Part shown: piece after piece, positions 14,240-56,892 of the stretch
How positions within the stretch are numbered: position 1 is the stretch's first letter
How the letters are laid out: every line of letters begins with the position of its first letter
From: a virus
Lineage: Duplodnaviria > Caudoviricetes
Length of the DNA: 64,000 nt
Virus record (IMG/VR): IMGVR_UViG_3300033498_000048
Location: 128,001-192,000 of that record
Reading direction: 5' to 3' (one strand)
The notes under the pieces: generated by a model
What the model was told of the DNA's origin: nothing
What the model saw: the letters and a program-made list of their open reading frames with translations, nothing else
Databases searched by the model: none
Program-made: the position numbers and the translations under genes

Positions 14240-14790
14240 AATCAATGAGTTAGCACTTACAGGTTGGTGTTAGTTATATAACTGTTCCAAGTGCTAACTC
14301 ATTGATTCGTATAGTGTAATTAATTGTTATTAACTATCAATAGGTTAGCACTTACAGACATTAAGTAATTATAGGGACGCTTCAAGAGTGTATCATTCAT
14401 TGTCAATTATTAAAATCAATGAGTTAGCACTTGCACTGGTCTTATAATTAACTAACTGTTCCAAGTGCTAACCACTTGTTTAATATACATAAAGTTAATT
14501 AGTATAACTATCAATAGGTTAGCACTTATAGACTGGTATTAGTTATATAACTGTTGCAAGTGCTAACCTATTGATAGTTGGTTGTCCAAACCATTGAGGT
14601 GTAGTTAAAAATTGGAACAAATATGTAACTAATTGTGTTGAATAGCTAAAATCAATGAGTTAGCACTTACAGCGTGGTATTAATTACTTAATTGTTCCAA
14701 GTGCTAACCTATTGATTTAATTGAGAATGGTACAAGGTAATAATATCAACGACTTAGCACTTGGACGGTGTTATTAATTATCCAAGTGCT
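14240..14790. repeat. Inverted-repeat array 1 (68-bp units; IHF-box arms)
   Basis: Complete units start at 14240, 14414, 14509 and 14650, e.g. AATCAATGAGTTAGCACTT-N30-AAGTGCTAACTCATTGATT; partial units at 14335 and 14744. Confidence 0.95.
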
Positions 14791-14824
14791 ATTTTTATGA
14801 GTGGAACATTTCCACAATTGAATA

Positions 14825-16138
14825 CTAAAGACTAATCGAACTAACTTCGTTTAAATACATTTTATTAGCTGTTGTATTCAATAACGATTTTAGTTCTTTT
14901 TCTTTGTTTTTTAATGAGGTGTTTAAATCTGCTATTTTATCTTTTGTTAGGTTGTAAATAGGCATTGATAACAACTTATCTACATTAATGAATCCATTGT
15001 TCGATAATAACTCTACCAATTGTTTTTTAGACAATTCTTTAAATGTTGTTGCATTTTCAATGTAATAATTGATAAATCGTATTTTTTCTGAAATATCTGC
15101 TATTTCAGCAGTAACTATATCAATTAACTTTAAACGTCTCAATTCATAAATGTGAAGTCGATACTTAACAAAATAATCAACAATTTCTGCTGCCGAATTA
15201 AATACTTGAAGTTTAGAATTAACATTCCACAATGTTAAGTTTTCAGTGTCTTTTGATACCAACTTAAATGTATTATAAATGGTATCAATGTCCATATTAG
15301 TAACATTCCTAGGGCATTTAATTTCAATATTAAATCCATCTTCTGAAGAATCATCATCATAATCTTTGATTACATCTGTTTCCTTCAGTTTATTAAGGAT
15401 TGTTTTAATATCATCAAGGAACATTCCAATTGGCAATTCGGTAATACTAATTGTCGTTGAATTAACAATTTCCAATTTACCTTTGAAAATCCATTGGTTT
15501 TGATTTTCACCTTTTAATATTTGTCCAATGAAATTCTTATACCAAGGAATCAACTCAATTCTAGGTGTACCATTTAATATAGCAATAATATCATTTTTTA
15601 CATCAATTGGATTATATGCTAACACTTTACTGGCATATCCAGTACCAATTCCATGTGTTCCATTAATTAATACAACTGGTAATATTGGAACATAGAACTT
15701 TGGCTCAATTTGTTGGTCATCTTCATATAGATGTTCCAATATCACATCATCTGTACTATTAAATAATGTATTAAATGATGGAGATAACTTTGTGAAAATA
15801 TACCTATGTGCTGCTGGAATTGGTGATAATCTTGAACCAAATTGCCCTATAGGTTCGAGTAAATTGATATTGTTTGAACCAGCAAAGTTTTGAGCTAAGT
15901 TACAAATAACACCACCGATTCCTGCTTCTCCGTGGTGGTAAGCTGTTTCAGCAGCAACGGATGAACACAATTGTGCTACTTTGATTTCTGTGTTGGTTCT
16001 TTTTTTACAAGTGTGGACTATTTTACGTTGTGTTATTTTTAATCCATCTATGACATTTGCAATACTCCGTTGTGAATCATATATCGTGTATGGTTTATGT
16101 TGTGTTTCAAAAAACTCATTAATTGTTATCTTTTGCAT
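14825..16138 (-). CDS. 52: Type II DNA topoisomerase, GyrA/ParC-like subunit (T4 gp52)
   Basis: DGLKITQRK, YHHGE, GQFGSR...AAHRYIF (catalytic RY), NGTHGIGTGY. Confidence 0.95.
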   Translation of the reverse strand: MQKITINEFFETQHKPYTIYDSQRSIANVIDGLKITQRKIVHTCKKRTNTEIKVAQLCSSVAAETAYHHGEAGIGGVICNLAQNFAGSNNINLLEPIGQFGSRLSPIPAAHRYIFTKLSPSFNTLFNSTDDVILEHLYEDDQQIEPKFYVPILPVVLINGTHGIGTGYASKVLAYNPIDVKNDIIAILNGTPRIELIPWYKNFIGQILKGENQNQWIFKGKLEIVNSTTISITELPIGMFLDDIKTILNKLKETDVIKDYDDDSSEDGFNIEIKCPRNVTNMDIDTIYNTFKLVSKDTENLTLWNVNSKLQVFNSAAEIVDYFVKYRLHIYELRRLKLIDIVTAEIADISEKIRFINYYIENATTFKELSKKQLVELLSNNGFINVDKLLSMPIYNLTKDKIADLNTSLKNKEKELKSLLNTTANKMYLNEVSSISL

Positions 16139-16152
16139 TTGCTTATTCCCAG

Positions 16153-18042: not shown

Positions 18043-18265
18043 AATGCTCCGTTAAATTGTAAATGTTAATATCAACAGACGTAAATTCACGTTCCTTTTC
18101 AATAATCTTATTATCCTTGCGTTTTATATTTCTTCTTATTTTTTCACTAAAGACCTTCCGTTGTTTACCCCAATTCATTGGTACTTTACCGACCCACTCA
18201 CTAGGTATTTCCACCAGTTTTCCACGCCTTAATCTATAAAAGATTCCATCTTTTTCAATTCTCAT
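18026..18265 (-). CDS. Small basic protein, paralogue B (YRLRRGKLVEIPSEWVGK)
   Basis: Shares an 18-aa block with the adjacent ORF; ATGA/stop coupling. Confidence 0.7.
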   Translation of the reverse strand: MRIEKDGIFYRLRRGKLVEIPSEWVGKVPMNWGKQRKVFSEKIRRNIKRKDNKIIEKEREFTSVDINIYNLTEHYVKND

Positions 18266-18483: not shown

Positions 18484-18497
18484 CTATAATTAAATTG

Positions 18498-19676
18498 TCA
18501 AATAAATTCACCTGGATGTGAATACAATACCTTATCTTTAGGGTTCGCTGATGTTGTAACCTCGGCAAATCTAACCCCTTTATTATTCTTTAGGGTTAAT
18601 ATATATTCAAAATTGGAAATTAAATCATAACTACCCTTTATTCCAATTGAGCTTGCAGTTTTTGAGTGACATGATAGTATGAAATTTATACCAACTTTCC
18701 TACCTTCTGTCAATAGTGGAAGTAAAAAGTCAGATAGGTTTTGAATATTTTTAGATACTGTTGTCCACTCGTCAGAAAAATAATAGACTTGTGGAAATTC
18801 ACCTTCAATAACAGCACCACTTCCTAATTGTTCATATCTGTGGTCCATTAAATGTAATGAGTTTTCTAGCTCTTCAGCAATAGCAGGGTAATTCCTACCT
18901 TGTCCTACAACACGCACACGTTCATCCCATTTCCCTGGGGTAGTGTGTGAATCCATAACTACTACTAAATGTCCCTGCCCTAATTTCTGTTTAATTAAGT
19001 GTTGGAATAGTGTTGTTTTACCCGAACCCTGTGAACCAATTATCAATATACGTTTAGAGTCAATTAATTCCTCTAATAATCCAGTCAAGTATCCATTATC
19101 ATCTTTTTTATTGATGCTTATAACCCCAACGTATGGATTTTGATTGGAATTAATTGATTCGTATATTACATCTTCTTCATCGTCATCGTTGTTTCCACAA
19201 TCTAAAACAGTATCATGTTCTTCAACACAATAATCGTCTGGATTTACATCCGTATCACATTCTTCAACGCAATAATCATCTGGACTTACACTTGTTTCGT
19301 GTTGTAATACAGCAATAGATGTCAATTGATATGGAGTGCATAGTTTCTCATTTCTAACTCTACTAATTGTATTGATGTGTATTTCTTTATTTAATTCCAA
19401 TTCATGTAGTTTTTGATACCGATGTAAATCCGTTAGGTTTTTTAAGTATCTAACTAAAAAAAAACAACATGGAACTAATACAAATAGTGCAGATATTAAG
19501 ATTATGATTCCAAGTAACCCGAACACCCCAGAAGTGGCAGTTACATAACTGTCAAGATAATTGTGTGGATATAATGATACAGATATATAATACCCCTTTA
19601 TTGTGATTGCAATTATCGCTGTAACCACGACAACTGCAACATATGATACAATTGTTAATAAATTGTTATTTCCCAT
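18498..19676 (-). CDS. Membrane-anchored FtsK/HerA/TraD-like P-loop ATPase
   Basis: Two N-terminal TM segments, acidic linker with a duplicated PDDYCVEE, Walker A GSQGSGKTT, Walker B YYFSDEW, and EGRKVGI. Confidence 0.7.
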   Translation of the reverse strand: MGNNNLLTIVSYVAVVVVTAIIAITIKGYYISVSLYPHNYLDSYVTATSGVFGLLGIIILISALFVLVPCCFFLVRYLKNLTDLHRYQKLHELELNKEIHINTISRVRNEKLCTPYQLTSIAVLQHETSVSPDDYCVEECDTDVNPDDYCVEEHDTVLDCGNNDDDEEDVIYESINSNQNPYVGVISINKKDDNGYLTGLLEELIDSKRILIIGSQGSGKTTLFQHLIKQKLGQGHLVVVMDSHTTPGKWDERVRVVGQGRNYPAIAEELENSLHLMDHRYEQLGSGAVIEGEFPQVYYFSDEWTTVSKNIQNLSDFLLPLLTEGRKVGINFILSCHSKTASSIGIKGSYDLISNFEYILTLKNNKGVRFAEVTTSANPKDKVLYSHPGEFI

Positions 19677-20387: not shown

Positions 20388-20670
20388 AATCAATGACTTA
20401 GCACTTGGAACAGTTATATAATTAATACCACGATGCAAGTGCTAACCTATTGATTTTGTTATATTGTAATCATTCTCAATTAAATCAATAGGTTAGCATT
20501 TATGAGTATTGGTTAATTAGTAAAGTGTTCCAAGTGCTAACTCATTGATTTATAGTAATTGACGATAATAGCTACTATATCAACAGGTTAGCACTTACAA
20601 CTGTTATATAACTAAGACCAATCTGCAAGTGCTATCTTGTTGATTCTTAATAATTGACAAGATAGCACTT
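20388..20670. repeat. Inverted-repeat array 2
   Basis: Complete units at 20388, 20483 and 20578 (95-bp period, 30-bp cores), plus a partial arm near 20652. Confidence 0.95.
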
Positions 20671-20940
20671 GTGGAACATATTATAACACGCTTAATGATG
20701 TGTTCAGAACCAACACGATTAACCCAGTGATTCCAGATAAACTTATAAATGGGTTCAATCTGAATGCTTCTGTTGGAGTTCGTTTTAATCTTGATGTTGT
20801 GTGGAAGATAAGCATAATAACACAAATACCACAAATAATATTAATAAGCAATTTTAATTCTCCAGTTGATAAGTAATTTATAGTTGTGCATGATACATTA
20901 AATAATAAAAAAGTCAAATAAATATGTTTATATTTTAAAA

Positions 20941-21900
20941 ATGGAGAAAGGTATGTTACAAGGTTTACAAAGTAATGCGTTTTCATATTCACAGTTCGTA
21001 TGGTTCATAGGTGTAGTTGAAGATAGAGATGACCCAGAAAAGACTGGACGACTTAAAGTAAGAATATTTGGCTATCACGATGAAGAAGATAGTGAAAATT
21101 CAAGTAGTGAAATATCAAAAGATTCGTTAGTTTGGGCTGCAACAATGCAACCAACAACCAGTGCAGCATTAAGTGGAATTGGTCATAGTCCAACAGGTAT
21201 TATGGTTGGTACAACGGTTGTTGGTTTTTTTGCAGATGGTCATAGTGCAGAAATGCCTATTATTATGGGTACATTAACAGGTAAACCAACAAAAACAAGT
21301 CAAACAAAGACAAAATATGAGGATGGTGAGTCGGATGCAAATAGGTTAGCTAGGGGAGAAACAAAAGAAACATCTATAGAAAAACAAAACGACTCATTGA
21401 CTGAGGGTGATGGGTGGAAAGAACCAAAATCAGCATATGCTGCAAAATATCCATACAATCATATAATTGAAACAGAGTGTGGACATATACAAGAATTTGA
21501 TGATACCGATGGTGCAGAACGCATACGAATTTACCACAAGAATGGTACATTTTGGGAAATACATCCAGGTGGAGATTATGTTTTAAAAATCCAAGGTACA
21601 CAATACGAAATCATCAAAACAGACTCTAATGTTAAAATAGGGGGTAATTTAAATGTAGAAGTAACTGGTGATGTGAAACTCAAAGTGAACGGTAAAGTTG
21701 ATTGTCAAGTTGTTGGGAACATAACGGTTAAATCAGATGGTGATATAGCAATGACTGCTACTGGAGATTTTGATATTAAATGTGGTGGGAATGCGACAAT
21801 TCAATCTGGTAGTTCTATGAAACTTGAGTCTGGTGGTAATACGTCAATTGATGCTGGAGGTATGTGTAGTATTAATGGGTCAATGGTAACAATAAATTGA
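20941..21900 (+). CDS. 5: Baseplate hub/spike protein, gp5-like (OB fold + beta-helix, no lysozyme domain)
   Basis: WFIGVVEDRDDPEKTGRLKVRIFGYH, V.GFF.DG...P.IMGTL, YPYNH..ETECGH..EFDDT.G.ERI, then 8-residue beta-helix repeats. AATAAATA upstream. Confidence 0.88.
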   Translation: MEKGMLQGLQSNAFSYSQFVWFIGVVEDRDDPEKTGRLKVRIFGYHDEEDSENSSSEISKDSLVWAATMQPTTSAALSGIGHSPTGIMVGTTVVGFFADGHSAEMPIIMGTLTGKPTKTSQTKTKYEDGESDANRLARGETKETSIEKQNDSLTEGDGWKEPKSAYAAKYPYNHIIETECGHIQEFDDTDGAERIRIYHKNGTFWEIHPGGDYVLKIQGTQYEIIKTDSNVKIGGNLNVEVTGDVKLKVNGKVDCQVVGNITVKSDGDIAMTATGDFDIKCGGNATIQSGSSMKLESGGNTSIDAGGMCSINGSMVTIN

Positions 21901-33879: not shown

Positions 33880-34652
33880 TATCAACAGGTTAGCACTTGC
33901 AAACTGGTATTAGTTATATAACTGTTCCAAGTGCTAACTCATTGATTATGTTTAAAAATATAAAACCACCACTAATACCAGTTTGCAAGTGCTAACCTGT
34001 TGATATTGGATGACCATTCTTGTTCAATTATTAAGAATCAATAACATAGCACTTGGAACAGTTTACTAATTAACCAACACCTGTAAGTGCTAACTCATTG
34101 ATTCTTAAACATTCAGTCTAATTAGCACTCGTGGAACTGGTCTTAGTTGTATAATCGTTGCAAGTGCTAACTCATTGATATTATTAGGACACAATCATTC
34201 CGAATTAAATCAATAGGTTAGCATTTACAGATTGGTCTTAGTTATATAACCGTTGATATTTGATTACCATTCTTGTCAATTATGAAGAATCAATGAGTTA
34301 GCACTTGCAACGTGTTAGTAATTACCTAACCGTTATAAATGCTAACTAACTGTTTATTAAGCATTTTCACCATAACCTAACTAAATCAATGAGTTAGCAT
34401 TTATATGGGTGTCTTAATTATATAACGGTTGCAAGTGCTAACCTATTGATTCTTAATACCAACATAAAACTCCAGTATGGACTGATATTAACCATTACTA
34501 ATTCGTTAATATTACCAACGCTTCTAGTCAATTATTTTGAATCAATGACTTAGCACTTGGAACGGTTATATAATTAACTAACTGCTCCAAGTGCTAACTT
34601 ATTGATTTAATTGAGTTTGTGTGATTGTATATGAATCAATGAGTTAGCACTT
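33880..34652. repeat. Inverted-repeat array 3 (largest)
   Basis: Complete units at 33880, 34036, 34288, 34384 and 34540; orphan or degenerate arms at 33987, 34162, 34208 and 34634. Confidence 0.95.
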
Positions 34653-34709: not shown

Positions 34710-35189
34710 ATGATAATAAATTTTGATACTGTCACGTTGATATTTATATTCATATTAATTGAATATATCATATACAATTGTATTAAGAGTAAGAATGATA
34801 CAATTCCAGACTGGGATAGAAAGTGTATATGGAAAACAAAAGTAAAAAAATTGGTTAAGGTTGTTGATGGTGATACATTTACAGCATTCGTGGATGGACA
34901 TCATCCAATTGACAATAAACCAATTGGAATTAGAATCAGGGGAATAGATACTCCTGAAATGAAATCGACAGACGAACACACTAAAAGACTAGCAATAGAG
35001 GCTAAAGAAGTTGCTATGGGTGTATTAACTAAGTCCAGAAAGATTGTGCTATATAACGTAAGCTTAAATGACAAATATGGAAGGATGTTAGCGACTGTGT
35101 TTTGTGATGGAATAGATTTAGCCAAACTTCTTCTTAATAGAGGACTGGCTAAACCTTATTTTGGAGGAACTAAAGAGGATTGGGATTAA
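34710..35189 (+). CDS. Staphylococcal nuclease-like (SNase/thermonuclease) with N-terminal membrane anchor
   Basis: KVVDGDT, IRIRGIDTPEM, DKYGRMLA, LLNRGLAKPY; hydrophobic first 25 aa. Confidence 0.88.
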   Translation: MIINFDTVTLIFIFILIEYIIYNCIKSKNDTIPDWDRKCIWKTKVKKLVKVVDGDTFTAFVDGHHPIDNKPIGIRIRGIDTPEMKSTDEHTKRLAIEAKEVAMGVLTKSRKIVLYNVSLNDKYGRMLATVFCDGIDLAKLLLNRGLAKPYFGGTKEDWD

Positions 35190-36626: not shown

Positions 36627-38108
36627 TCAATCTATTTCATCTTCAATAACATCAATTGGAACAATACTACTTCCAAATAAATTCGCAGTTGATAATTTAA
36701 AATTGTCAATTACCCATTTTTTAAATGTTGGATTGTCTAATATCGGTGTCCAAAATTCAGAACAATCCGTTTCTTTTAATCTCCATTTTTTAGCTTCAAT
36801 TTCACCTGTATCAAATACTCTTGAATACCAACCTTGGACTGGTTTAATAACAAGCCCTGATTGTAACCCTAACTCAATCAATCCAGTGTAAGTCGATAAT
36901 CCACCATCAAATTTAACTGTAATCGGAATCTTTGATTTCTCTATAACTACTCTTGATTTCTCAACATTTACCACAAAATTATGTCCAATTAATTCTGTTC
37001 CATCTTTTTCTTGTTGTCTACCGATAATGAAAATTGTATCTGCGGAATAATATGGACCCGTATTATGCGTTACAACTCCATTTTCCAAAATATAATGTTC
37101 AGCTTCATAGACTGAAATATCATAAACTGGCAATTTACCAACTATATTAATTGATTTGACAATCCTTCCACTTGTTTTACCAATATACCCATTTGTTGTA
37201 ACTGGAGTATCAATTTTTAAATTTTTTGCCTCTGTCCAACCATCAATTGTTAAAAATGAATGATTGTTTGAACAAGTGACACTATATCCATCATCAAATT
37301 GAATCTCATAACATTCTGGAATGCCAATATGTAACGTATCAGGATTCCATATTGAAGTAACAACTTTATCACCAATCGCAGTTCTAACCTGTTCACCAAC
37401 TTTAATGTTTTGTATTTCTTTAAGAGTGTTGTCCGACATTTGAAGCTTTGTTCCCGACACTAAACAACCTCCACTAACAACTGCTTTTGAATAGATTTCC
37501 TGTGTTTGATAGATGTGTGCCACGATAACACATGGAATGTTCTTTATTTTCATATATGGAGTAATAATTCTAAAAAATGATTTAATCTGTTTAGCTCTGC
37601 TCATATCAGCAACAGATTTTTCATCTTTAGCATCATCAACTTCTTTTTTGGATGCTATATTTCCGATTGAGTCCACAACAAAGATTACTTTATCACCCCG
37701 TTCAATTCCTTCTAATTGGTTTACCATATCGAACTTCAATTCTTCCAAATTCAGGATTGGAATGTGCATTACTCTTCCCATATCAATTTCCAATGAATTG
37801 AAATAGTCTTTAGAAGTACCAAACTCACAATTGTAAAACATTAATACAGACTCAGGATATTTGTCCATGTATTTTTTAGCCATTATCAGGGAAAACATTG
37901 TTTTAAATGATTTCGATGCACCTGCTAATATTGTGATTCCAGGTGAAAAGCCACCATCGACATCTCCCGATAACAAAATATCGAGAGATGGAATCCCAGT
38001 GTGTACGACTTCAGTTTGATTAAAAAACTTAGAGTCCTTTAATATTTCCGTTGCTTTAATTGTTGAATTGCTTTTCAATCTGTCCATCAAGCTTGTTTTT
38101 GTAGCCAT
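36627..38108 (-). CDS. uvsX: UvsX RecA-like recombinase containing a mini-intein
   Basis: GASKSFKT, VVDSIGN.ASKKE, KSVADMSRAK, SGG|intein|TGPYYSAD. Confidence 0.95.
   Translation of the reverse strand: MATKTSLMDRLKSNSTIKATEILKDSKFFNQTEVVHTGIPSLDILLSGDVDGGFSPGITILAGASKSFKTMFSLIMAKKYMDKYPESVLMFYNCEFGTSKDYFNSLEIDMGRVMHIPILNLEELKFDMVNQLEGIERGDKVIFVVDSIGNIASKKEVDDAKDEKSVADMSRAKQIKSFFRIITPYMKIKNIPCVIVAHIYQTQEIYSKAVVSGGCLVSGTKLQMSDNTLKEIQNIKVGEQVRTAIGDKVVTSIWNPDTLHIGIPECYEIQFDDGYSVTCSNNHSFLTIDGWTEAKNLKIDTPVTTNGYIGKTSGRIVKSINIVGKLPVYDISVYEAEHYILENGVVTHNTGPYYSADTIFIIGRQQEKDGTELIGHNFVVNVEKSRVVIEKSKIPITVKFDGGLSTYTGLIELGLQSGLVIKPVQGWYSRVFDTGEIEAKKWRLKETDCSEFWTPILDNPTFKKWVIDNFKLSTANLFGSSIVPIDVIEDEID
37062..37466 (-). 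mobile_element. Cis mini-intein in UvsX (135 aa, Cys1...His-Asn, Thr+1)
   Basis: CLVSGT (block A), TCSNNH (block B), VYDISV...VTHN|T (blocks F/G); no endonuclease domain. Confidence 0.92.
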
Positions 38109-40298: not shown

Positions 40299-42647
40299 TT
40301 ACTTCATCAACTTGATAAACTTGTCTGTACTAATAACTTCAGTTGGTTTAATTGAAATGTTTTTTCCATCACGGTTTACTATTAATGAATGGTCTGCTGT
40401 ACAAATAATTTCAGTTCCATCTACTGTAATTTTAAACAATTCTTTTTTAACTTTGTGAGCCATAACGTATTTTATTGGATTTACAACTAATTTCCCGTTA
40501 ATATCTACTCCATACGCATTTAGATTAAATACTGGTTTAACGATATTGTCAATTTCATTTTTTACTGGAATTGTATTAATTGAATCAAATAAATTCCCTA
40601 TTTTCATATCACCACAATCCATTGAAATTACCGTATCACCAACAACGGAATCTGTATCGGAATAGATGACATAATCAACTCCATTAGTTTTAAACCTAGA
40701 ATTTAAAAACTCGTTTAATCGTTTAGCAATGTATAAGATTACAAGTTGTCCAGTTAGTGTAATACCTTCCGCCATATCATTTGAAGAATATCTGAATCCA
40801 GCGTTTCCACAAGACCCATAACACGAGTTGAGTGCTAATTTTAGGGCTATTTGCATAGCTTCGTGGAATGCCGAATCAGTATATAACTTTTCCAATTCGT
40901 TCTTCAATTCAGCATCCATTAAGTTTGCTAATTTAGTAGTACCACGTTTAGACAATTCGGTTTTAATGAGTTCTATTTTTTTATCAGCAGCTATTCGCAT
41001 CGTTTTATGCGAAACACGGTCATTAAACATTTCAGTGATAATTTCTGGAATGATACCAATTTTATCTTTTGAAAACATTGCCCCATTAGCTGCCATAGCA
41101 CAATTCAGCTTTTTTAAGTGTGCTGTATCTACATTTAAATCAATTAAATCTTCCACTAAATTTCCAGTAGCAGTCTTAACTAATGTTTCATAACTCACGT
41201 TTAACATTCGCATTATTGATGGATATAATGATGTTAAATCAAATGCGACAACCCATTTATATAAACCTGGAATTGGCTCTTTAACAAATGCTCCAGCATA
41301 TCCATCACTTGATTGTTTTTGTGGAGCGGGTGGGATTTGTATTCCTTTTTTTCTAAGTGCGTTATAAACTAAACATTCCCAGTTCTTGACTTGTCCAAAT
41401 ATTTCAGATTGTTTTACTTTACACATATACGCGATTGTTAATCCAATGAAAATGTAATTTAACTTCGCGTCCAACTTTCTAGGCAACCTAACGTCTTGGG
41501 TGTTATATTCTACAAATTTATTATAAGCATACTCTTTAATGTAATTATCAATCGTGAAATAAACATCAATCAATTCATTAGCATTTAGTTTATCCAAATC
41601 AACATTTAATATGTTAATATCAAATTTAGTTGTTTGGATGTAATCTAATTCAATTGGTAATTCTTTTCCATATTGTTGTTGGACACGTTCTTTAAATCTA
41701 CCAATTTTTAATATTTCTAAATCATTGTTTGATTTTAATGCTTTTTGGGATAGTATTCCATTATATAAATTGTGTAATGAACCAAATTCTGAATAATCAA
41801 CCTTCCGTTCTGATAATTCGACTAATGCAATATTATCTAATGAATAACTCCCAAGCTTTTGGGTACTAAACTTTTTATACATTTCGATATAGTCGTATGG
41901 AGAAATACCCAATATTTTATATCCCTTTTTTAAATTATCTAATTCAATTTCGGATATAACATTTCTAGCTTTTTTGTAAAATGGACTCAATCGGTCAGCC
42001 CACTGTTTACCCAATACTTTTTTTATTCGATTGATGATATAGGGAATATCAAATTCATTAATATTGAATCCTGTTATAATATCTGGTTCTATTTTAATCC
42101 ACTCATTAACGAATGTCATTAATAAATGCCGTTCATCGTCACATTCAATATATAATTCATCTGGATTACAATGACCAGTAAATGTTTTAGTTCCAATCGT
42201 TATATAGGTTGTATTATGTGCAAACGTTGCAAGTGTGATACTTGTTACTTCATTATCAGCAACATCTGGAGGTGAATATCCAAGTACAACATCAAATGCA
42301 ACTTCAATATCAAAGTTTAAAATGTTAATCTTTGTTATATCAAACTTTATTAAATCTGGATATTCAGTTGCAATGAATTGATGTGCTAAACTTGTTTGTC
42401 CGTGTATTTGACGATAGTTTCTGTTTTTGCGAATGTACTCATTAGTTTCTTTGACACTATTGAATCGTATGCTTGATAGTTTTTCACCCATAAATCCAAT
42501 TGCATCACCTTTACCCCTGTCACTTGGTACATATAAAACAAATGGGTAATTTTCTAATATTTCAGTCTGTCTTTTTTCTCCATCAAAAAACCTATGGAAT
42601 ATCTTATTTTCTTGCACTTCAACCGATGTGTAAAACTTTTCTGGCAT
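40299..42647 (-). CDS. 43: DNA polymerase gp43 N-terminal fragment ending in split-intein IntN
   Basis: FDIEV (ExoI), GFNINEFDIPY, FDLTSLYPS (motif A), KLALNSCYG (motif B), YSDTD|S (motif C). Confidence 0.95.
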   Translation of the reverse strand: MPEKFYTSVEVQENKIFHRFFDGEKRQTEILENYPFVLYVPSDRGKGDAIGFMGEKLSSIRFNSVKETNEYIRKNRNYRQIHGQTSLAHQFIATEYPDLIKFDITKINILNFDIEVAFDVVLGYSPPDVADNEVTSITLATFAHNTTYITIGTKTFTGHCNPDELYIECDDERHLLMTFVNEWIKIEPDIITGFNINEFDIPYIINRIKKVLGKQWADRLSPFYKKARNVISEIELDNLKKGYKILGISPYDYIEMYKKFSTQKLGSYSLDNIALVELSERKVDYSEFGSLHNLYNGILSQKALKSNNDLEILKIGRFKERVQQQYGKELPIELDYIQTTKFDINILNVDLDKLNANELIDVYFTIDNYIKEYAYNKFVEYNTQDVRLPRKLDAKLNYIFIGLTIAYMCKVKQSEIFGQVKNWECLVYNALRKKGIQIPPAPQKQSSDGYAGAFVKEPIPGLYKWVVAFDLTSLYPSIMRMLNVSYETLVKTATGNLVEDLIDLNVDTAHLKKLNCAMAANGAMFSKDKIGIIPEIITEMFNDRVSHKTMRIAADKKIELIKTELSKRGTTKLANLMDAELKNELEKLYTDSAFHEAMQIALKLALNSCYGSCGNAGFRYSSNDMAEGITLTGQLVILYIAKRLNEFLNSRFKTNGVDYVIYSDTDSVVGDTVISMDCGDMKIGNLFDSINTIPVKNEIDNIVKPVFNLNAYGVDINGKLVVNPIKYVMAHKVKKELFKITVDGTEIICTADHSLIVNRDGKNISIKPTEVISTDKFIKLMK
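40302..40649 (-). mobile_element. Split intein N-fragment (IntN, 116 aa, Ser1)
   Basis: SVVGDT (block A with Ser1), CTADHS (block B T-x-x-H), stop after KFIKLMK. Confidence 0.93.
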
Positions 42648-44327: not shown

Positions 44328-44715
44328 CCTCTAACAATAATGAGTCCAAATAGGACTCATGTTGTTTTAATATTGGCACAACTTCTTTTGCTTTAGTGTA
44401 TGAATAACCATACACTCGCTGTATTTTATCAATTAATACTGTATCGTCAATATTTTTATTCCACTTGGAATACCGTTTTCGTTTTGGTATAACATGGAAT
44501 AAAAATGTGTATTGCATTTGAATGTCCATTTCAAATCTGATATTCAATTCATTCACAAGTAAAGCCGTATCTCGATATTGAGATAGTGCTTTATTAATCA
44601 TAAATGGATTATACTCAGCAGTTAATTGTTCTTCAATTAATTCTGTTTTTCCATTTGTGATATTGTTCACAATATCAAATAAACCTAAAGATGGTTGGTT
44701 GTCCAATGTACTCAT
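44299..44715 (-). CDS. 62: Clamp loader small subunit gp62
   Basis: YNPFMINKALSQ..DT...VNELN, KRKRYSKW, YGYS..KA.EV. Confidence 0.9.
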   Translation of the reverse strand: MSTLDNQPSLGLFDIVNNITNGKTELIEEQLTAEYNPFMINKALSQYRDTALLVNELNIRFEMDIQMQYTFLFHVIPKRKRYSKWNKNIDDTVLIDKIQRVYGYSYTKAKEVVPILKQHESYLDSLLLEGGKVNKKIK

Positions 44716-46106
44716 TTGAACTCCAAATCCCGCATTAACTCGGTTAGCATTGCAACTATATTCAATTCTTTATCGGAAACAAAGTTTGACTTATAATCAT
44801 AATCTGATAACGTTAGTACCAATTGTGGTAACGAACTTGGAATAACATAATCTGGGGCTTTAAGATAAATTGCTCTTGATAATGTCATTTGGGAATTGTC
44901 TAAATTACTAACAACCCATTTTCTAACCTCGTTCCATTTACTGGGGTCTCTTAAATATGTAAACAACTCATCAATATTAGCATCTGATAAACTTGTTAAT
45001 ACGAGTTCGTCCAACCTGTTATTGACCATTGATAATTGTTGTAACGTTGTTGTGATTTTTCGCATATCTGGAAAATGCGTTGTTATTACCTTCGCAACAA
45101 CATTCCTATCATATTCAACTCCCTCATGGTCTAATATTTCTAGCATTCTTTTTTCAAGTGGGAGTATCACTTCCATTTTTTCAGCTTTAGTAAGTGCAAA
45201 GTCAACAACTGCACACCTACTTTTTAATGGACCCATAATTCTATTGCTAAAATTGGCAGTCAATATAAACCTACAGTTTGCACTATAGGTTTCCATAAAG
45301 TTTCTTAATGCAGGTTGTGTGCTATTACAATTGTGAGCTACTACACCATTTTCCAAAATGAAATTGTGATTATCATCATTAGTAGTCAAATCATAAACTG
45401 GTAACATTCCCAATGATTCCATCGACACAATGGTTTTTGTTTTTCCATTGGAATCAACAAGCTTATCACCAATTTTGATACCATCCTTTTTTTCTGATAC
45501 TCCACAATATCCATTTATTGATTCAATGGTGTAAAAAGGATGGTCTTTTGTGCAATACATTCTTGAATAATCATCAAATTGTACAATGTACACTTCGCCT
45601 ATTCCCGACTTGAATACGAATGCTTCTGCTGTGTATTGTTCACCTGTTGTTGTGTTATATGATAATATATTAACTGTTTTATCATAAATTGAATCAAATG
45701 ACTTTAATTCTGGAACACCATCTATATTCACAGTGTAAATATGTTGGTTTCCAGCAAAACAATTTAAATAATCGGCTTCATCTAATAATACTACTTTATA
45801 TCCACCTCTATTCTTCATACTAACGGTGCTAGCATAACGTTCAATCGTAGTTCGGAGCGTATCAATGTTCCCATCTTTCGAGGCATTGATTTCCAGTAAG
45901 TCAATGCCCATATCACTACACAACGCTCTTGGAATTGTGGTTTTTCCAACACCCTGATAACCAGTGAACAACATATTTGTTATTTGTCCACTGTCAATAA
46001 TAGCTTGAAAATAGTTTTTTAATCTCGATGGTAAAATAACATTAGCCATCGTTCTTGGACGAAACTTCTCAGCCCAAAGTGGTTGATTCGGAGTAATATC
46101 CAACAT
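44712..46106 (-). CDS. 44: Clamp loader large subunit gp44 containing a mini-intein
   Basis: WAEKFRP, GYQGVGKTT, LDEADYLN|intein|CNSTQPALR, LKSRC, FPDMRK. Confidence 0.95.
   Translation of the reverse strand: MLDITPNQPLWAEKFRPRTMANVILPSRLKNYFQAIIDSGQITNMLFTGYQGVGKTTIPRALCSDMGIDLLEINASKDGNIDTLRTTIERYASTVSMKNRGGYKVVLLDEADYLNCFAGNQHIYTVNIDGVPELKSFDSIYDKTVNILSYNTTTGEQYTAEAFVFKSGIGEVYIVQFDDYSRMYCTKDHPFYTIESINGYCGVSEKKDGIKIGDKLVDSNGKTKTIVSMESLGMLPVYDLTTNDDNHNFILENGVVAHNCNSTQPALRNFMETYSANCRFILTANFSNRIMGPLKSRCAVVDFALTKAEKMEVILPLEKRMLEILDHEGVEYDRNVVAKVITTHFPDMRKITTTLQQLSMVNNRLDELVLTSLSDANIDELFTYLRDPSKWNEVRKWVVSNLDNSQMTLSRAIYLKAPDYVIPSSLPQLVLTLSDYDYKSNFVSDKELNIVAMLTELMRDLEFK
45330..45761 (-). mobile_element. 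Cis mini-intein in gp44 (144 aa, Cys1...His-Asn, Cys+1)
   Basis: CFAGNQ (block A), CTKDHP (block B), VYDLT...VAHN|C; no endonuclease domain. Confidence 0.92.
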
Positions 46107-51598: not shown

Positions 51599-52187
51599 AA
51601 TCAATAGGTTAGCACTTGATACCGTTAGGTAATTAATATATCGTTCCAAGTGCTAACCAGTTGATATTTGATTACATTCTTGTCAATTATTAAGAATCAA
51701 TGAGTTAGCACTTACATTGGTCTATTAATTATATAACAGTTACAACTGCTAACCTATTGATATTATTAATACTACATCACATCCAATTAAATCAATGACT
51801 TAGCACTTACAACGGTTATATAATTAATAGACCAATGCAAGTGCTAAGTCATTGATTCTTGATAACCGATATTATGTCCAACCAAGTGTTAGCTATAACT
51901 GTCAATTAAATATAAATCAATAAGTTAGCATTTGGAACAGTCTTATAATTAGTAAATGGTATCAAGTGCTAAGTCACTTGACTTAAAATGAATTAGACAA
52001 CTTCACTATTGGTTCTAAAATGATTAGAGCATTACCAATCATTCTCAATTTTAACCGATTTACCGTTGGTACTAAGAATCAATGACTTAGCACTTGCATT
52101 GGTCTGTTAATTATATAACCGTTGTAAGTGCTAACCTATTGATTTTTATTCACTGTCAATTAAATATAAATCAATAAGTTAGCATTT
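51599..52187. repeat. Inverted-repeat array 4
   Basis: Complete units at 51599, 51695, 51790, 51915 and 52077; orphan arm at 52169; a roughly 48-bp direct repeat at about 51897 and 52152. Confidence 0.95.
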
Positions 52188-52223: not shown

Positions 52224-52252
52224 TTGACTATTTTTTGATTCGATAATATAAT
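52224..52252 (+). promoter_or_regulatory. Sigma70-like promoter TTGACT-17-TATAAT
   Basis: Immediately after array 4, upstream of uvsY. Confidence 0.7.
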
Positions 52253-52279
52253 ATAAAATTAACTTATGGAGTTATAATA

Positions 52280-52705
52280 ATGGAATTGGAACAAATACAA
52301 ACCGAAATACAACTTGATAGTGTATTAAATGAAACTAAGCTTGATACTGAAAGTTTAAAGATTCCTATGTTACATTCAAAATGGTACAACTATTTAATAT
52401 TTGAAGCTCAGACATTAAAAAGGGTTGAACGAACATTTAACAAAGTAAAAAAGGCTAGAATTGAATATTATTTAGGGAAAGCTCCAGATGAAGTATATAA
52501 AGAACACCCTAAACCATACAATGTGTTAAAACAGGATTTAGAGTTGTATTTGAGTGCTGATGATGAATATCAAGTTCAACAAGAGTTGATAACTAACCAA
52601 CAAATCAAAATTGATTTAATTGAGCAGTTTTTAAAGCAAGTTTCGCAGCGTTCATTTAATATAAAAAACGCAATAGATTTTATGAAGTTTAAAAGTGGAT
52701 TGTGA
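52280..52705 (+). CDS. uvsY: Recombination mediator UvsY
   Basis: ESLKIPMLHSKW, EYYLGKA...VY, YL.AD, R.FNIKNAIDF.KFKSG. Confidence 0.92.
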   Translation: MELEQIQTEIQLDSVLNETKLDTESLKIPMLHSKWYNYLIFEAQTLKRVERTFNKVKKARIEYYLGKAPDEVYKEHPKPYNVLKQDLELYLSADDEYQVQQELITNQQIKIDLIEQFLKQVSQRSFNIKNAIDFMKFKSGL

Positions 52706-52983: not shown

Positions 52984-52991
52984 AAGGGATT

Positions 52992-53762
52992 GTGATGAGT
53001 AATATCATACTCCACAATGGAGATTGCTTTGAGGTGTTTCACAATATTCCAGATAAGTCTATCGACTTGATATTAACGGATTTACCTTATGGAAAACTAT
53101 CTTGTAAATGGGATATAGTAATTCCATTTACAGTTATGTGGGAAAACATAAACCGAGTCATTAAACCAAACGCTGCTGTTGTTTTGTTTGCAAGCCAACC
53201 GTTTACTAGTTTATTAATTACTTCAAACATTAAGATGTTTAGGTACGAATGGATATGGCAAAAAAACACGAGTGGAAGTTTTGTATTGGCAAAAAAACAA
53301 CCAATGAAGTATCACGAGAATATTTGTGTGTTTTATAATAAACAACCAACTTATAATCCAATTTTCGAGCAATACGCTGAATCAACTAAGATAAGGTTTC
53401 CAAATAATGGACACGTTAATTGCGACAAACTTGTAAACTCAAACAGTTTCAATAACATCCAATCAATAAAACGGGTTAAGGGTGCTGAAATGCTAATGAG
53501 TCGTGGAACATATCCAAAAAGTGTTCAATACTTTAAAGGTGTTCACAATGGAAATAATACTAGGTTACATCCATCACAAAAACCTGTTGATTTGTTAGAA
53601 TATTTAATAAAAACATACACAAATGAAGGCGAGCTTGTATTAGATTTTACTATGGGTAGTGGGTCAACTGGAGTTGCGTGTAAAAATACAAATAGAAACT
53701 TTATCGGTATAGAAAAGGATGAAGATATTTACAACACAGCAAACAATAGATTAAAGGATTAA
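52992..53762 (+). CDS. Orphan N4/N6 DNA methyltransferase (beta class)
   Basis: DLILTDLPYG (motif IV variant), HPSQKPVDLLEYLI, VLDFTMGSGSTG (motif I). Confidence 0.9.
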   Translation: MMSNIILHNGDCFEVFHNIPDKSIDLILTDLPYGKLSCKWDIVIPFTVMWENINRVIKPNAAVVLFASQPFTSLLITSNIKMFRYEWIWQKNTSGSFVLAKKQPMKYHENICVFYNKQPTYNPIFEQYAESTKIRFPNNGHVNCDKLVNSNSFNNIQSIKRVKGAEMLMSRGTYPKSVQYFKGVHNGNNTRLHPSQKPVDLLEYLIKTYTNEGELVLDFTMGSGSTGVACKNTNRNFIGIEKDEDIYNTANNRLKD

Positions 53763-53764
53763 AG

Positions 53765-55252
53765 ATGATAATAATATCAAAGTTAAATGAATTGTATTTA
53801 AAAGTAGATTCGGACGATAGGGGAGTATTAAGAGAAATATCTGATAAGTTTTCATTTATGGTTCCAGGGTATCAATATTCACCACAATATAAAAATGGAG
53901 TTTGGGATGGTAGAATTAAACTCTTTAATGTTAATTTGAGAACTCTGTATTCAGGGTTATTAATGGATTTAATTGATTATTTAAAGTCTGAAAATTATCA
54001 ATTTGATATTTCAGATAAGACAATCATCAAATCACAAACATTGGACTCTGAATTTGATATATTTAAGACTGATGTCTATAACTATACCAATATGTCAGTT
54101 GAAGGTATATACTCATATCAAATGGAAGCATTAATTAAGTGTATATTCTATAATAAAGCCTTGATACTATCCCCCACTGGGTCGGGTAAGAGCCACTTAA
54201 TTTATTTGTTAGTTAGATTTTTATTACAACACTTGGAGCGTGATATTTTAATTTGTGTTCCAACAACAGCATTATGTTCCCAAATTATTGATGATTTTGA
54301 TGATTATGTTGTTGATGATTGGATTGCATATGATAATTGTCATAAAATATACAGTGGACAAGATAAAACATCTAATAAACGAGTTGTTGTTTCTACCTAC
54401 CAATCCTTAGTAAAAATGTCGAGTGACTATTTTAATAAGTTCGATGCTTTAATTGTGGACGAAGCACATCAAGCTGATAGTAAAAGTATTATTAGTATAA
54501 TTGATAATATGGCACACGCTCCATGGAGATTCGGTTTAACTGGAACTTTGAATGGAACTAAAATACATGAATTATGTTTGCGTGGGTTGTTTGGTCCAAC
54601 AATCAAAACAAAAACAACTAAAGAGTTGATGGATATAGGTGTCTTAGCCAAATTGAAAATAGTAGCATATAAGTTAAAGTATTCAGCAGATGATAGGAAA
54701 TTAGTTAGAAAGTTACATAGCGAATATCAAACTGAAATAAAATGGATACTAGAAAATGTTAATAGAAATTCATTCCTAATTAATAAAGCGTTTGAAACAA
54801 CAAAAAACACATTAATATTATTTAATATGTCAGAGCATGGAAAAGAATTATTGCGAATTGCAAATGATATGAATGCTAATGGTACTAAGCAAATATTTTT
54901 TATGAATGGAAATACCAAAACAGATGAACGGGAAGAAATTCGTAAAAATTTAGAATTAATTAATGATGCGATTCTAATAGCATCTTATGGAGTATTTTCA
55001 GTTGGAGCTAATGTTAAAAACATTGACTTTGTGATGTTTGCACACCCGTATAAAGCTAGGATAAGAAACCTCCAGAGTATTGGAAGGTCAATTAGAAAAA
55101 AAGACGGAAAAGACTTTGCAACATTAATAGATATTGGGGATGATTTAACTCAAAATAAAAAACCTAATATCACATATTCCCATTTTACATCAAGGTTGAA
55201 AATTTATACAGCAGAACAATTTGATTACATTATAAGTGAAGTCGATATGTAA
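53765..55252 (+). CDS. uvsW: SF2 DNA helicase UvsW
   Basis: WDGRIKLF, SPTGSGKS, VDEAH, GLTGT, ASYGVFS.GAN, LQSIGR. Confidence 0.95.
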   Translation: MIIISKLNELYLKVDSDDRGVLREISDKFSFMVPGYQYSPQYKNGVWDGRIKLFNVNLRTLYSGLLMDLIDYLKSENYQFDISDKTIIKSQTLDSEFDIFKTDVYNYTNMSVEGIYSYQMEALIKCIFYNKALILSPTGSGKSHLIYLLVRFLLQHLERDILICVPTTALCSQIIDDFDDYVVDDWIAYDNCHKIYSGQDKTSNKRVVVSTYQSLVKMSSDYFNKFDALIVDEAHQADSKSIISIIDNMAHAPWRFGLTGTLNGTKIHELCLRGLFGPTIKTKTTKELMDIGVLAKLKIVAYKLKYSADDRKLVRKLHSEYQTEIKWILENVNRNSFLINKAFETTKNTLILFNMSEHGKELLRIANDMNANGTKQIFFMNGNTKTDEREEIRKNLELINDAILIASYGVFSVGANVKNIDFVMFAHPYKARIRNLQSIGRSIRKKDGKDFATLIDIGDDLTQNKKPNITYSHFTSRLKIYTAEQFDYIISEVDM

Positions 55253-55269
55253 ATACAAAAATATTCGAT

Positions 55270-55277
55270 TATAAATA
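55270..55277 (+). promoter_or_regulatory. T4-type late promoter TATAAATA
   Basis: Exact match 21 bp upstream of 55298. Confidence 0.75.
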
Positions 55278-55297
55278 CTATCTTTTAGGAGTAAGAT

Positions 55298-55588
55298 ATG
55301 TCTCAAAAAGTATTTGAATTGGCTAAAAATGGTCAAGAATCAGGTGTTGTTTTTATCAATTTGGTTAAAGTTGTGAATCCAACACCAGTAGTAGGAACAT
55401 CTACGGTATTAAACCCTGTAGCTCCTACAACTACAGTTTCTGCTGTTGATGGTATTGGTTTCAAAAACGAACAAGCAGATGCTGCATTATCGTCTTTTGC
55501 ATTTGATTCAGTGAACGGTAAAGTTTATATCAAAATCGCTAATACTCATGCAGCCACAGATTGGAAAGAATTGACCCACGCTGCCTAA
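55298..55588 (+). CDS. Small late (virion) protein
   Basis: Late promoter plus AGGAG RBS; the FDSVNGKVYIK...DWK motif resembles the fibre-module motif. Confidence 0.65.
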   Translation: MSQKVFELAKNGQESGVVFINLVKVVNPTPVVGTSTVLNPVAPTTTVSAVDGIGFKNEQADAALSSFAFDSVNGKVYIKIANTHAATDWKELTHAA

Positions 55589-55599
55589 TCCTTAAAATT

Positions 55600-55630
55600 G
55601 GTGGGCATATCAGTTATCGTATGTCCCACC
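55600..55630. terminator. Hairpin between convergent genes (GGTGGGCATA...TATGTCCCACC)
   Basis: 10-bp stem with one bulge, just after the stop of 55298..55588. Confidence 0.55.
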
Positions 55631-55826
55631 TATTCCACAATAATGTTAAGTAATCTTTTTTGTGGTTTTAAGTTTTTTACAATATATTTAAACACATCAT
55701 CATACGAATAATGTACCTTAGTGCTACCTCTGATTGTATAATATGTGTCGTTACCATATACATTTTCCTCAATAATGTATTCACCTTCAGAATCTATTAA
55801 TGTTTTACCATCACGACTTAACCCAA

Positions 55827-56426
55827 TTAAATATAGTTGTGTTTTTCATACTCTTTAATTGTTTTTTTGTACACATCAACTATTGCTATGATACCTGCAT
55901 CTGTTAAATCCCTTGTTCCAATTCCAGCATAATTTAATGATAATATTGGAATCTCACATTCAATATACCTATTATATATCCAATTATACCACAATTCAGA
56001 TATACAATCAAATACAAAAACTTCTTTATTGTTAGCGATAGCCATTTCAACAGCGTAACCAGTTCCACCATCAACTGTTACTTTATTTGATTTTGATTTA
56101 AATCCGCGACTATTAGTATTCCCTGGAATAACAAGTCGACTAATTGCTAAAATCCTAGTTGAGTTTTTAACTTGAAACCAGTTCCGACCCAATAAGCTTG
56201 AATACTTATCTGACCAATTTCTACCTAAAACCTTTGCTGCTTTTTTAGCATGATTAATACCTTCGGCAATGTCAGTGTCAGATAATAATTTGTTTCCAAG
56301 TGGAGTTCGTTTACCATGATAATAATGAATGTGGTTAATAAATCCCATATCACGACCTATTATGTCCCAAGCCGAATCTGCACCAGTTGCTCCACCAGAG
56401 TAATTCGTATAATTATGTTGCATCAT
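55827..56426 (-). CDS. SLOG/DprA-like Rossmann-fold protein (SGGATGAD)
   Basis: YSGGATGADSAW, RNWFQV, GGTGYAV, YAGIGTR. Confidence 0.65.
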   Translation of the reverse strand: MMQHNYTNYSGGATGADSAWDIIGRDMGFINHIHYYHGKRTPLGNKLLSDTDIAEGINHAKKAAKVLGRNWSDKYSSLLGRNWFQVKNSTRILAISRLVIPGNTNSRGFKSKSNKVTVDGGTGYAVEMAIANNKEVFVFDCISELWYNWIYNRYIECEIPILSLNYAGIGTRDLTDAGIIAIVDVYKKTIKEYEKHNYI

Positions 56427-56673
56427 GTAGTTGAGTCATTGATTGATACCAAAGGGCGATTGGACGATTCCAGACCGTTAAATCATTCAATCTCTGATAT
56501 ACAACTGTTGGTGGATATTCGTCCAACCTGCCTGAATTTAAGTTTGATAGTAAAAGCACGGTATATGTTGAACCATTTTTATGAATCCAAGTCGAACCTA
56601 TTTCTGGATTATTCATCTTTAACCTCCTATAATTATAATACGCCAAATTAACACAATAATAGTATAGTGTCAA
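56413..56673 (-). CDS. DUF1653-like small protein (true start probably MNNPEIG)
   Basis: W.HKNG..Y.V...VVYQ.L.D..VW.RP. Confidence 0.6.
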   Translation of the reverse strand: MTLYYYCVNLAYYNYRRLKMNNPEIGSTWIHKNGSTYTVLLLSNLNSGRLDEYPPTVVYQRLNDLTVWNRPIALWYQSMTQLHDAT

Positions 56674-56674
56674 A

Positions 56675-56892
56675 TGTCAACAAGTTAGCACTTAGGACAC
56701 ATTAAGTTATTCATTGTCAATTATTATAAATCAATAGGTTAGCACTTACATGGGTGTATTAATTATATAACTGTTCCAAGTGCTAACCTATTGATAGTGT
56801 TATCATTCATTATCAATTATTATAAATCAACAAGTTAGCACTTGGAACGTGTTAGTAATTACTTAATGAGTGTAAGTGCTAAGTCATTGATT
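56675..56892. repeat. Inverted-repeat array 5
   Basis: Complete units at 56729 and 56825 (96-bp period); partial arm at 56675. Confidence 0.93.

Follow-up and report, generated by a model that had tools for sequence, protein, structure and literature searches.

What is a conserved inverted repeat doing in phased arrays between the genes of a very large phage? The question is raised by a 64,000-nucleotide stretch of DNA (the window), bases 128,001-192,000 of the 305,782-bp virus record IMGVR_UViG_3300033498_000048, which comes from a microbial-mat metagenome and represents a T4-like jumbo phage. A first-pass annotation of the window had reported five intergenic clusters of a unit made of two inverted 19-bp arms around a 30-bp core, and had proposed that they form a multi-copy, cis-acting nucleoprotein platform. 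Here we report that the outer part of each arm is an IHF box of consensus quality, that the two arms of a unit vary independently of one another, that the core is polar and of fixed length, and that the arrays lie at the boundaries of transcription units. Reading these features from the sequence, we tentatively favor, with somewhat less than even confidence, the view that the arrays are a lineage-specific family of protein-binding modules in double-stranded DNA (dsDNA), at which host IHF and a putative core-binding factor would act at transcription-unit boundaries.

Copy number and placement of the repeat family

The arm was searched for with the pattern WATCAANNNNTTAGCACTT, allowing up to 2 mismatches and using dinucleotide shuffles as the control, and a unit was defined as a pair of arms at a 49-bp arm-to-arm offset, i.e., with a core of exactly 30 bp. 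In the window, this search returns 45 arms, compared with 0.90 ± 0.92 (maximum 4) in the shuffles, and 44 of the 45 fall into five clusters at 14240-14762, 20388-20645, 33880-34652, 51599-52187 and 56675-56892 (coordinates are those of the window unless they are said to be genome coordinates). Both the five intergenic clusters of a single repeat unit and the manual count of about 45 arms in the first-pass annotation are borne out. Complete arm-N30-arm units also exist as described, although we count 17 of them across the five intergenic arrays instead of about 19. The remaining arm match (41568-41586, plus strand; 1 mismatch, AATCAATTCATTAGCATTT) lies within the DNA polymerase gene, stands without a second arm, and probably arose by chance.

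Across the whole genome, the same threshold yields 217 arms, comprising 86 units and 45 orphan or truncated arms. They are grouped into ~38 arrays, usually of 2-5 units each, which are found in 18 of 31 ten-kilobase bins and in none of the long-gene structural blocks. Roughly 3% of the 306-kb genome is made of this repeat family. When open reading frames (ORFs) are called with our own simple ORF caller, which gives crude calls for 449 genes and 85% coding, 213 of the 217 arms lie outside the ORF calls.

Anatomy of the unit

The unit that we use as a reference is the following, numbered from its own first base.

14240-14307, no strand assigned: reference unit; arm at 1-19 (AATCAA-TGAG-TTA-GCACTT), polar core at 20-49 with its TAAYTA center at 32-37, inverted arm at 50-68

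A symmetrised profile of 80 units is conserved at positions 1-6 (WATCAA), 11-19 (TTAGCACTT), 20-22 (RSA), 26-28 and 32-37 (TAAYTA), and almost no conservation is seen in the flanks outside the units. The core is exactly 30 bp long in all 17 units of the window, as had been claimed, and in 80 of the 86 units genome-wide. A (G)-containing motif had also been described as frequent in the core; this motif, GTTATATAAC, is indeed present, but as one among several core variants, and the invariant part is the TAAYTA center. The core is polar, in that 67 of 80 units can be oriented to one consensus (G-S-A-A-C-N-R-T-T-A-N-N-T-A-A-Y-T-A-A-N-A-C) and the two core halves are anti-correlated, with z down to -6.8 at position 29. 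Core polarity is mixed within arrays.

The spacing between units is likewise regular. Linkers measure 26-28 bp in 41 cases and can properly be called semi-conserved, as they had been, since they include at least two sequence families, TAATTGAG-TATAAT-ATACACTAAYAA and CTTAATAATTGACAATGAATGATAACAC, along with diverse 27-mers; one of the families carries a remnant -35 box (AATTGACAATGA). In 23 pairs of neighboring units, the starts are separated by 93-96 bp, giving a period of ~95 bp, or roughly nine helical turns. Length is thus kept more tightly than sequence, which argues for a structural constraint on dsDNA that is predicted neither by RNA hairpins nor by independent insertions.

The two arms of a unit could be conserved as partners in a stem or as separate sites. 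At the variable positions 7-10, left and right arms agree with one another no more than re-paired arms do (z = 1.2, -0.4, 0.1 and 1.7). Among 49 units with co-directional flanking genes, sense-strand mismatches are of the G·U type in 61 cases and of the A·C type in 51 (p = 0.40). Because the arms do not covary and there is no G·U excess, base pairing is not under detectable selection. The independent variation of the arms points to protein half-sites over a hairpin under selection.

Identity of the arm as an IHF box

The consensus sequence for IHF binding is WATCAANNNNTTR, as cited in PMC10380432. In Table 2 of PMC6907758, as extracted, the H-NS and IHF motifs are seemingly swapped, with WATCAANNNNTTR standing under H-NS, and we therefore took the consensus from the former source. 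Arm positions 1-13 read WATCAA-NNNN-TTA, which is this consensus, and 166 of the 217 arms match it exactly at every specified position. There are 221 matches to the consensus in the genome; the 55 that lie outside arms equal the number expected from base composition (55.4), and the backwards pattern occurs 70 times. Positions 1-6 and 11-13 of the arm are 74-100% conserved, while the sole variable positions, 7-10, are the N4 of the IHF consensus and are biased to Y-R-R-S. The DNA 5' of WATCAA, where IHF sites of high affinity have a dA+dT-rich tract, is AT-rich like the whole genome (69% AT) and carries no position-specific signal (information ~0.1 bit). The proposal of a multi-copy nucleoprotein platform is favored by the independent arms, the exact phased spacing and the intergenic arrays, but it had missed the identity of the arm with the IHF consensus and the PeSL-like abutment of arrays on sigma-70-type early promoters.

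Arrays at transcription-unit boundaries

Perfect TTGACA-N16-18-TATAAT sites occur 28 times in the genome and 0 times in a reversed-genome control, and 23 of the 28 lie between genes, correctly oriented and as a rule 30-40 bp ahead of a start codon. The phage clearly uses host-type sigma-70 early promoters. In 14 of the ~38 arrays, an outward-facing early promoter is present with its -35 box 7-48 bp beyond the last arm, and the array-promoter distances fall into classes near 7-8, 21, 28-32, 40-42 and 48 bp. Approximately 36 of 51 strong promoters have no array. In co-directional contexts, the array begins a median of ~24 bp after the upstream stop codon. Divergent junctions hold 8 of the 38 arrays and convergent junctions hold 7, whereas each of these two classes makes up 8% of all junctions. 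Overall, the arrays mark transcription-unit boundaries rather than promoters as such.

The five arrays of the window, to which no strand is assigned, are given below with their settings.

14240-14802: array 1; four complete units at 14240, 14414, 14509 and 14650, plus orphan or truncated arms; between a small ORF at 13849-14139 (minus strand) and a topoisomerase II subunit gene at 14825-16138 (minus strand)
20388-20670: array 2; three complete units at 20388, 20483 and 20578; at a divergent junction, flanked on the left by small minus-strand ORFs and on the right by a gp5-like baseplate hub gene at 20941-21900 (plus strand)
33880-34652: array 3; four complete units at 33880, 34036, 34384 and 34540, and several orphan arms, irregularly ordered; followed by a staphylococcal-nuclease-like gene at 34710-35189 (plus strand)
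51599-52187: array 4; four complete units at 51599, 51695, 51790 and 52077, with core polarity +-+-; between two plus-strand genes
56675-56892: array 5; two complete units at 56729 and 56825 and a single orphan arm; flanked on both sides by a minus-strand ORF

All four cores of array 1 have minus polarity, and array 5 ends 4 bp from the stop codon of its upstream ORF (56897-57601). The promoters and promoter-like sites of the window are as follows.

14170-14198, minus strand: early promoter, perfect TTGACA-17-TATAAT; distance from the last arm of array 1, 41 bp; distance to the downstream ORF start at 14139, 31 bp
20654-20682, plus strand: promoter-like site, TTGACA-17-CATATT (10/12); outward-facing; distance from the last arm of array 2, 8 bp
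52224-52252, plus strand: early promoter, TTGACT-17-TATAAT (11/12); distance from array 4, 37 bp; distance to the downstream gene uvsY (52280-52705), 28 bp
56653-56680 (genome 184653-184680), minus strand: promoter-like site, TTGACA-16-TATTGT (10/12), at the downstream edge of array 5 and overlapping its orphan arm
58714-58742, plus strand: perfect promoter elsewhere in the window
63544-63572, plus strand: perfect promoter elsewhere in the window

The uvsY gene that follows array 4 is itself followed by a DNA methylase gene and then by a helicase gene. With respect to the other transcription classes of a T4-type phage, the late motif TATAAATA is 11-fold enriched 30-40 bp upstream of genes, and MotA and AsiA were not found in the phage genome; the early and late signals are classic, and a middle-mode system is not recognizable.

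Several known signals were compared with the unit itself and rejected. A sigma-70 promoter inside the unit is suggested by ATGACT-18-TATAAT in some units, but the TGAC variant of the arm is uncorrelated with core polarity. The sequence TGCTAAC resembles a Mot box, but its spacing to any -10 element is wrong for a MotA-type middle promoter, and MotA and AsiA are absent. The late motif TATAAATA is used elsewhere in the genome and not within units. Sigma-32 and sigma-54 promoters, the Cheo box and the DnaA box were compared with the unit by eye, and none fitted.

A proposed role for the arrays

Under the reading that we favor, each outer end of the unit would present an IHF box of consensus quality (WATCAA-N4-TTA), the two boxes being inverted relative to one another and both predicted to bind IHF. 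The inner 42 bp, consisting of GCACTT, the polar TAAYTA-centered 30-bp core and AAGTGC, would be the probable site of a second factor. Host IHF, or an IHF-like bending protein, may fold the arrays into compact nucleoprotein structures, and the folded arrays could then modulate or insulate adjacent early promoters and punctuate the genome. As dispersed homology, the arrays may also provide crossover points at which promoter-ORF cassettes are duplicated and shuffled, as PeSLs (promoter-early stem-loops) do in other T4-type phages. We infer IHF binding and a second factor from the composition of the unit, and the regulatory, architectural and recombination roles from its placement.

A number of observations weigh against this reading. 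The phage has no gene of the HU/IHF family (Bac_DNA_binding), so any IHF would be supplied by the host. Moreover, IHF covers 9 of roughly 30 conserved positions per half-unit. Because it leaves GCACTT, the RSA and GTT blocks and TAAYTA unaccounted for, a second factor on the inner 42 bp is likely. Judging by the structure of IHF bound to H', IHF boxes that face one another across a 27-bp linker leave barely enough room for two full footprints. A recognizable outward-facing promoter accompanies only ~14 of the 38 arrays, and four or five arrays lie between convergent gene ends (as judged from the crude gene calls), where a promoter is not needed. Core polarity is independent of the direction of the neighboring genes. 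As for helical phasing, information content gives an ambiguous Fourier spectrum (peaks at 10, 17 and 20.5 bp). The array-promoter distances do share one face of the helix (R = 0.65-0.69 for periods of 10.5-11 bp, a value reached by 0.24% of random sets), but that test is post hoc, takes in paralogous cassettes, and is therefore only suggestive. Finally, every unit would form a stable hairpin if it were transcribed, and canonical GC-stem/T-run intrinsic terminators are rare, with 5 sites genome-wide.

Dispersed repeats of high copy number that follow a defined protein-binding grammar are, to our knowledge, almost without example in phage genomes. If the arms bind IHF, the phage would have hard-wired a host architectural protein into dozens of its transcription units, which would bear on how jumbo phages lay out and time the expression of very large genomes, on the shuffling of cassettes in T4-type phages and on the titration of host nucleoid proteins by phages. 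The exact length and the polarity of the core within the inner 42 bp suggest that a further DNA-binding protein, perhaps a new one, is involved. A stronger version of the favored reading, which we regard as doubtful, is that the phage carries a chromatin-like punctuation of its own, in which ~38 phased arrays with some 220 IHF boxes, occupied by host IHF and a putative core-reading phage protein, would insulate and time the early units. Such a system, if real, would be a prokaryotic counterpart of the hr regions of baculoviruses. The arrays may also serve as a sponge for a host protein: tens of thousands of sites on replicated genomes might titrate IHF off the host chromosome.

Hairpin formation and a possible role in RNA

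A rather unlikely alternative is that the unit functions in RNA, as the 3' end of the upstream transcript, where its hairpin would terminate or attenuate transcription from either side, block 3' exonucleases or be processed by RNase III, and would represent the "stem-loop" half of a PeSL-type cassette. The folding of the unit is compatible with such a role, given that units folded as RNA form a stem of ~19-20 bp and a loop of ~26-30 nt, with free energies between -21 and -37 kcal/mol and z values between -4 and -8 relative to shuffles; the reference unit folds at -36.7 kcal/mol (z = -8.1) with a stem of ~20 bp. The ends of the arms are rich in U, reading UUGAUU and then UAAUU or CUUAAU. Placement also argues for this alternative, in that the co-directional arrays, ~24 bp after a stop codon and often followed by an early promoter, have the layout of PeSLs (PMC4122927), and in that a terminator is the only element that makes transcriptional sense at convergent gene ends. 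Because canonical terminators are so rare, something else must end transcripts.

Set against this are the lack of covariation at the four variable stem positions and the balance of G·U and A·C mismatches on the sense strand described above. In addition, the anti-correlated core halves keep the loop non-palindromic, and a loop of 26-30 nt above an A-U-rich stem base is unlike that of intrinsic terminators. A role in RNA would also leave unexplained both the tandem arrays with their ~95-bp period and the 8 arrays at divergent junctions. No Rfam family matches the 64-kb window on either strand at the gathering threshold, and no tRNA matches either. One of the five canonical terminators (genome 127,128-127,151, ~850 bp before the window) is separated from an array by 15 bp. 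A secondary role of the units in 3'-end formation or RNA stability may nevertheless accompany the protein-binding role that we favor.

Possible mobility and a case of duplication

We consider it unlikely that the unit is a selfish, non-autonomous mobile element of the MITE, REPIN or Correia type, whose arms would be terminal inverted repeats recognized by a transposase and whose copies would have settled at safe intergenic sites without a function for the phage. The 19-bp inverted arms do have the form of terminal inverted repeats, as in MITE and Correia-like elements, and the high copy number, intergenic placement and mixed orientation of the units and the 45 orphan or truncated arms agree with this explanation. 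So does the scatter of similar unit variants over more than 100 kb: the cores at genome 162036 and 274840, which are >100 kb apart, are identical at 29 of 30 positions, and the similarity of dispersed copies ends exactly at the boundaries of the 68-bp unit. In the nearest relatives, the syntenic replication regions lack the element. A precedent exists in the Correia elements of Neisseria, which join inverted repeats, an IHF site, promoters generated at their ends and RNase III hairpins (PMC2649163).

However, the best match of any unit to another is 84-94% identical, so there is no near-identical class of copies, and array-mates are no more alike than are units of different arrays (52.0 versus 51.4 of 68 positions). 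Direct repeats flanking the units, which would indicate target-site duplication, occur at chance for k = 2-8. The whole genome contains no match to Y1_Tnp/RAYT (PF01797) at E <= 0.1 and none to rve, Resolvase or Phage_integrase (tyrosine recombinase); this search covered these four families in the phage genome. Within that scope, the earlier statement that no RAYT or recombinase lies in the window can be extended to the whole genome. Random insertion does not explain fixed linkers of 26-28 bp or a ~95-bp period, and the conserved positions are exactly those of the binding consensus of a host protein. Array sequence is also identical in the reads of three mat samples from different years. The same phage, not a diverged relative, is present at ~2x depth in the reads of two other mat studies, and three parts of array 3 (33969-34119, 34128-34278 and 34332-34482) are found exactly in the reads of those two samples.

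There is one clear case of duplication. At genome 118,655-119,680 (~8.3 kb before the window), there are two tandem paralogous cassettes, each consisting of a unit, a promoter (TTGACA...TATATT) and an ORF of ~95-103 amino acids. The two cassettes are roughly 80% identical, as estimated from an alignment, and their ORFs have conserved N-termini and divergent C-termini. These cassettes show that a block bounded by the element has been duplicated. The family thus looks old and maintained, with occasional local duplication and probably ectopic recombination, and does not look like an active transposon.

Possible roles as replication origins or HrcA decoys

It is very unlikely that the arrays are replication origins or enhancers comparable to baculovirus hr regions, with the palindromes drawing in an initiator or activator protein. 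The explanation is invited by the dispersal of imperfect palindromes, grouped in arrays, over the genome of a large dsDNA virus, and also by the AT-richness of the arrays, their proximity to promoters and the location of array 3 next to a DnaB-like helicase gene. The origins of T4 pair a promoter with an unwinding element. However, ~38 loci are far above any known set of phage origins, and T4-type phages initiate replication mainly in a recombination-dependent manner. The first-pass annotation had suggested an origin or enhancer role and inflections of GC skew or coverage near the arrays as a check, and neither finds computed support. GC skew shifts only where the gene strand shifts, and read depth in the source run is flat at ~24x across 20 kb (24-26x over 20 kb with two arrays, with no gradient and with an excess only from multi-mapping of repeats).

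That the arrays are decoys for HrcA, titrating the host heat-shock repressor so that chaperones are induced, is extremely improbable, since the resemblance of the arm core TTAGCACTT to what we take to be the half-site TTAGCACTC of CIRCE, the operator bound by HrcA (8/9 bases), in which arm positions G14, C15, A16 and T18 are invariant or nearly so, competes with a better-fitting IHF reading of overlapping bases, the CIRCE spacer of 9 bp contrasts with 30 bp in 80 of 86 units and with no N9 class, and the phage has no HrcA gene.

Comparison with known repeat systems

The first-pass annotation held that none of the known analogues has this arm-N30-arm geometry. The unit is a member of none of the systems compared here, but the IHF boxes and the promoter-abutting layout tie it to three of them much more closely than that statement suggests. 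The unit works like a blend of BIME-1/RIP, Correia elements and PeSLs, from each of which it departs in at least one defining feature.

In E. coli, BIME-1/RIP (RIB) elements consist of two inverted REPs around an IHF site, and BIME-2 is the tandem, gyrase-binding form. Like these elements, the phage arrays are extragenic mosaics of alternating orientation and regular spacing, are often found at the 3' ends of transcription units, contain IHF sites and form tandem arrays (PMC2817692); the alternating ><>< pattern has spacers of 30 bp and 26-28 bp. The inverted repeats of the phage are themselves the IHF boxes, whereas in BIMEs the IHF site is central and flanked by GC-rich REP hairpins. A single REP is a GC-rich imperfect palindrome; a single 19-bp arm, by contrast, is rich in A+T and cannot pair with itself, so that palindromy arises from arm pairs alone. 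Furthermore, the phage unit has a polar 30-bp core centered on TAAYTA, the phage has no RAYT gene, and the elements reside in a lytic-type phage genome rather than in a bacterial chromosome.

The likeness to PeSLs lies in an intergenic cassette, recognizable at ~14 of the 38 arrays, in which a palindrome is closely followed by an early promoter of sigma-70 type, then by a Shine-Dalgarno sequence and a small ORF, and in dispersal over plastic regions in association with cassette duplication (PMC4122927), of which the phage offers the one clear case at genome 118,655-119,680. By contrast, the stem-loop of a PeSL is short and simple, e.g., G(n)-loop-C(n), and there is one per cassette, while the phage palindrome is 68 bp long and highly conserved, contains IHF boxes, shows no selection for pairing and recurs with a ~95-bp period. 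With its 19-bp stem, ~30-nt loop and no clear T-run, the phage unit is not a short terminator. Many arrays have no recognizable promoter, and most strong promoters have no array.

The Correia repeat-enclosed elements (CREE) of Neisseria are elements of ~100 bp with inverted-repeat ends and a conserved core, are present in at least 100 copies, and are linked to IHF binding, to promoters at their ends and to long RNA hairpins (PMC2649163). The phage units differ in having IHF boxes in the arms, in the absence of a target-site duplication and in their arrangement as phased tandem arrays. CREE have their IHF site in the core, are associated with a TA target-site duplication, and occur as single copies rather than as phased arrays.

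The hr regions of baculoviruses also comprise many dispersed arrays of imperfect palindromes, with direct repeats of ~70 bp, in a large dsDNA virus. They differ from the phage arrays in that they bind the viral IE-1 protein and act as enhancers or origins in a eukaryotic nucleus, and there is no homology of sequence or protein. With CIRCE, the unit has in common the half-site sequence TTAGCACT. It is not a CIRCE member, since its spacer is 30 bp rather than the exact 9 bp that separates the inverted copies of TTAGCACTC in CIRCE, its copies are arrayed and its half-site overlaps an IHF box.

Distribution of the element

The element appears to be specific to this phage lineage. A megablast search with 8 kb against 50,697 phage records gave no match. 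The exact unit pattern has 0 matches in IMG/VR, and in JGI metagenomes and GTDB genomes it has single-copy matches at about the number expected by chance, none of them with a full arm. Two inverted IHF boxes at the geometry of the unit occur in IMG/VR at one site per contig among the matches listed. A related-locus search with the DNA polymerase found no relative, and the syntenic 21-kb replication loci of the two nearest relatives are compact and contain no such repeats.

Those loci have features of their own. Between uvsX and the DnaB-like helicase gene (14-19 kb), both nearest relatives carry genes for GTP cyclohydrolase I and QueC; a QueF-like gene is found in one of the two, and a faint radical-SAM match is found in both. 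As judged from these gene assignments, the set points to 7-deazaguanine modification of DNA in the relatives. In both of them, the DNA polymerase is split into two ORFs.

Genome context and other observations

The G+C content of the phage is ~31%. Its replication set is of the T4 type, with a family-B DNA polymerase, both topoisomerase II subunits, a gp46/47-like nuclease, UvsX, UvsY, a UvsW-like helicase, a clamp loader and a DnaB-like helicase. The DNA polymerase is ~36% identical to the polymerases of T4-like cyanophages and at most 49% identical to any protein in a large collection. The "direct terminal repeat" of the record is an exact 127-bp overlap between genome positions 1-127 and 305,656-305,782; this length is typical of an assembler k-mer, and a circular or circularly permuted assembly is more likely than true terminal repeats.

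Three replication genes in the window, all on the minus strand, have unusual domain matches. The DNA polymerase (40299-42647) has a precomputed match to an intein-splicing domain (PF14890). The UvsX-like recombinase (36627-38108; 493 amino acids) matches its PHROG family in two stretches with an insert of ~60 amino acids between them, and the clamp loader (44712-46106; 464 amino acids) does likewise with an insert of ~145 amino acids. This pattern suggests that inteins or other insertions may be present in several replication genes. Lastly, a 42-bp tandem repeat (19210-19290; 1.9 copies, 87% matches) lies within an ORF on the minus strand (18498-19676) that bears a weak resemblance to the terminase large subunit.

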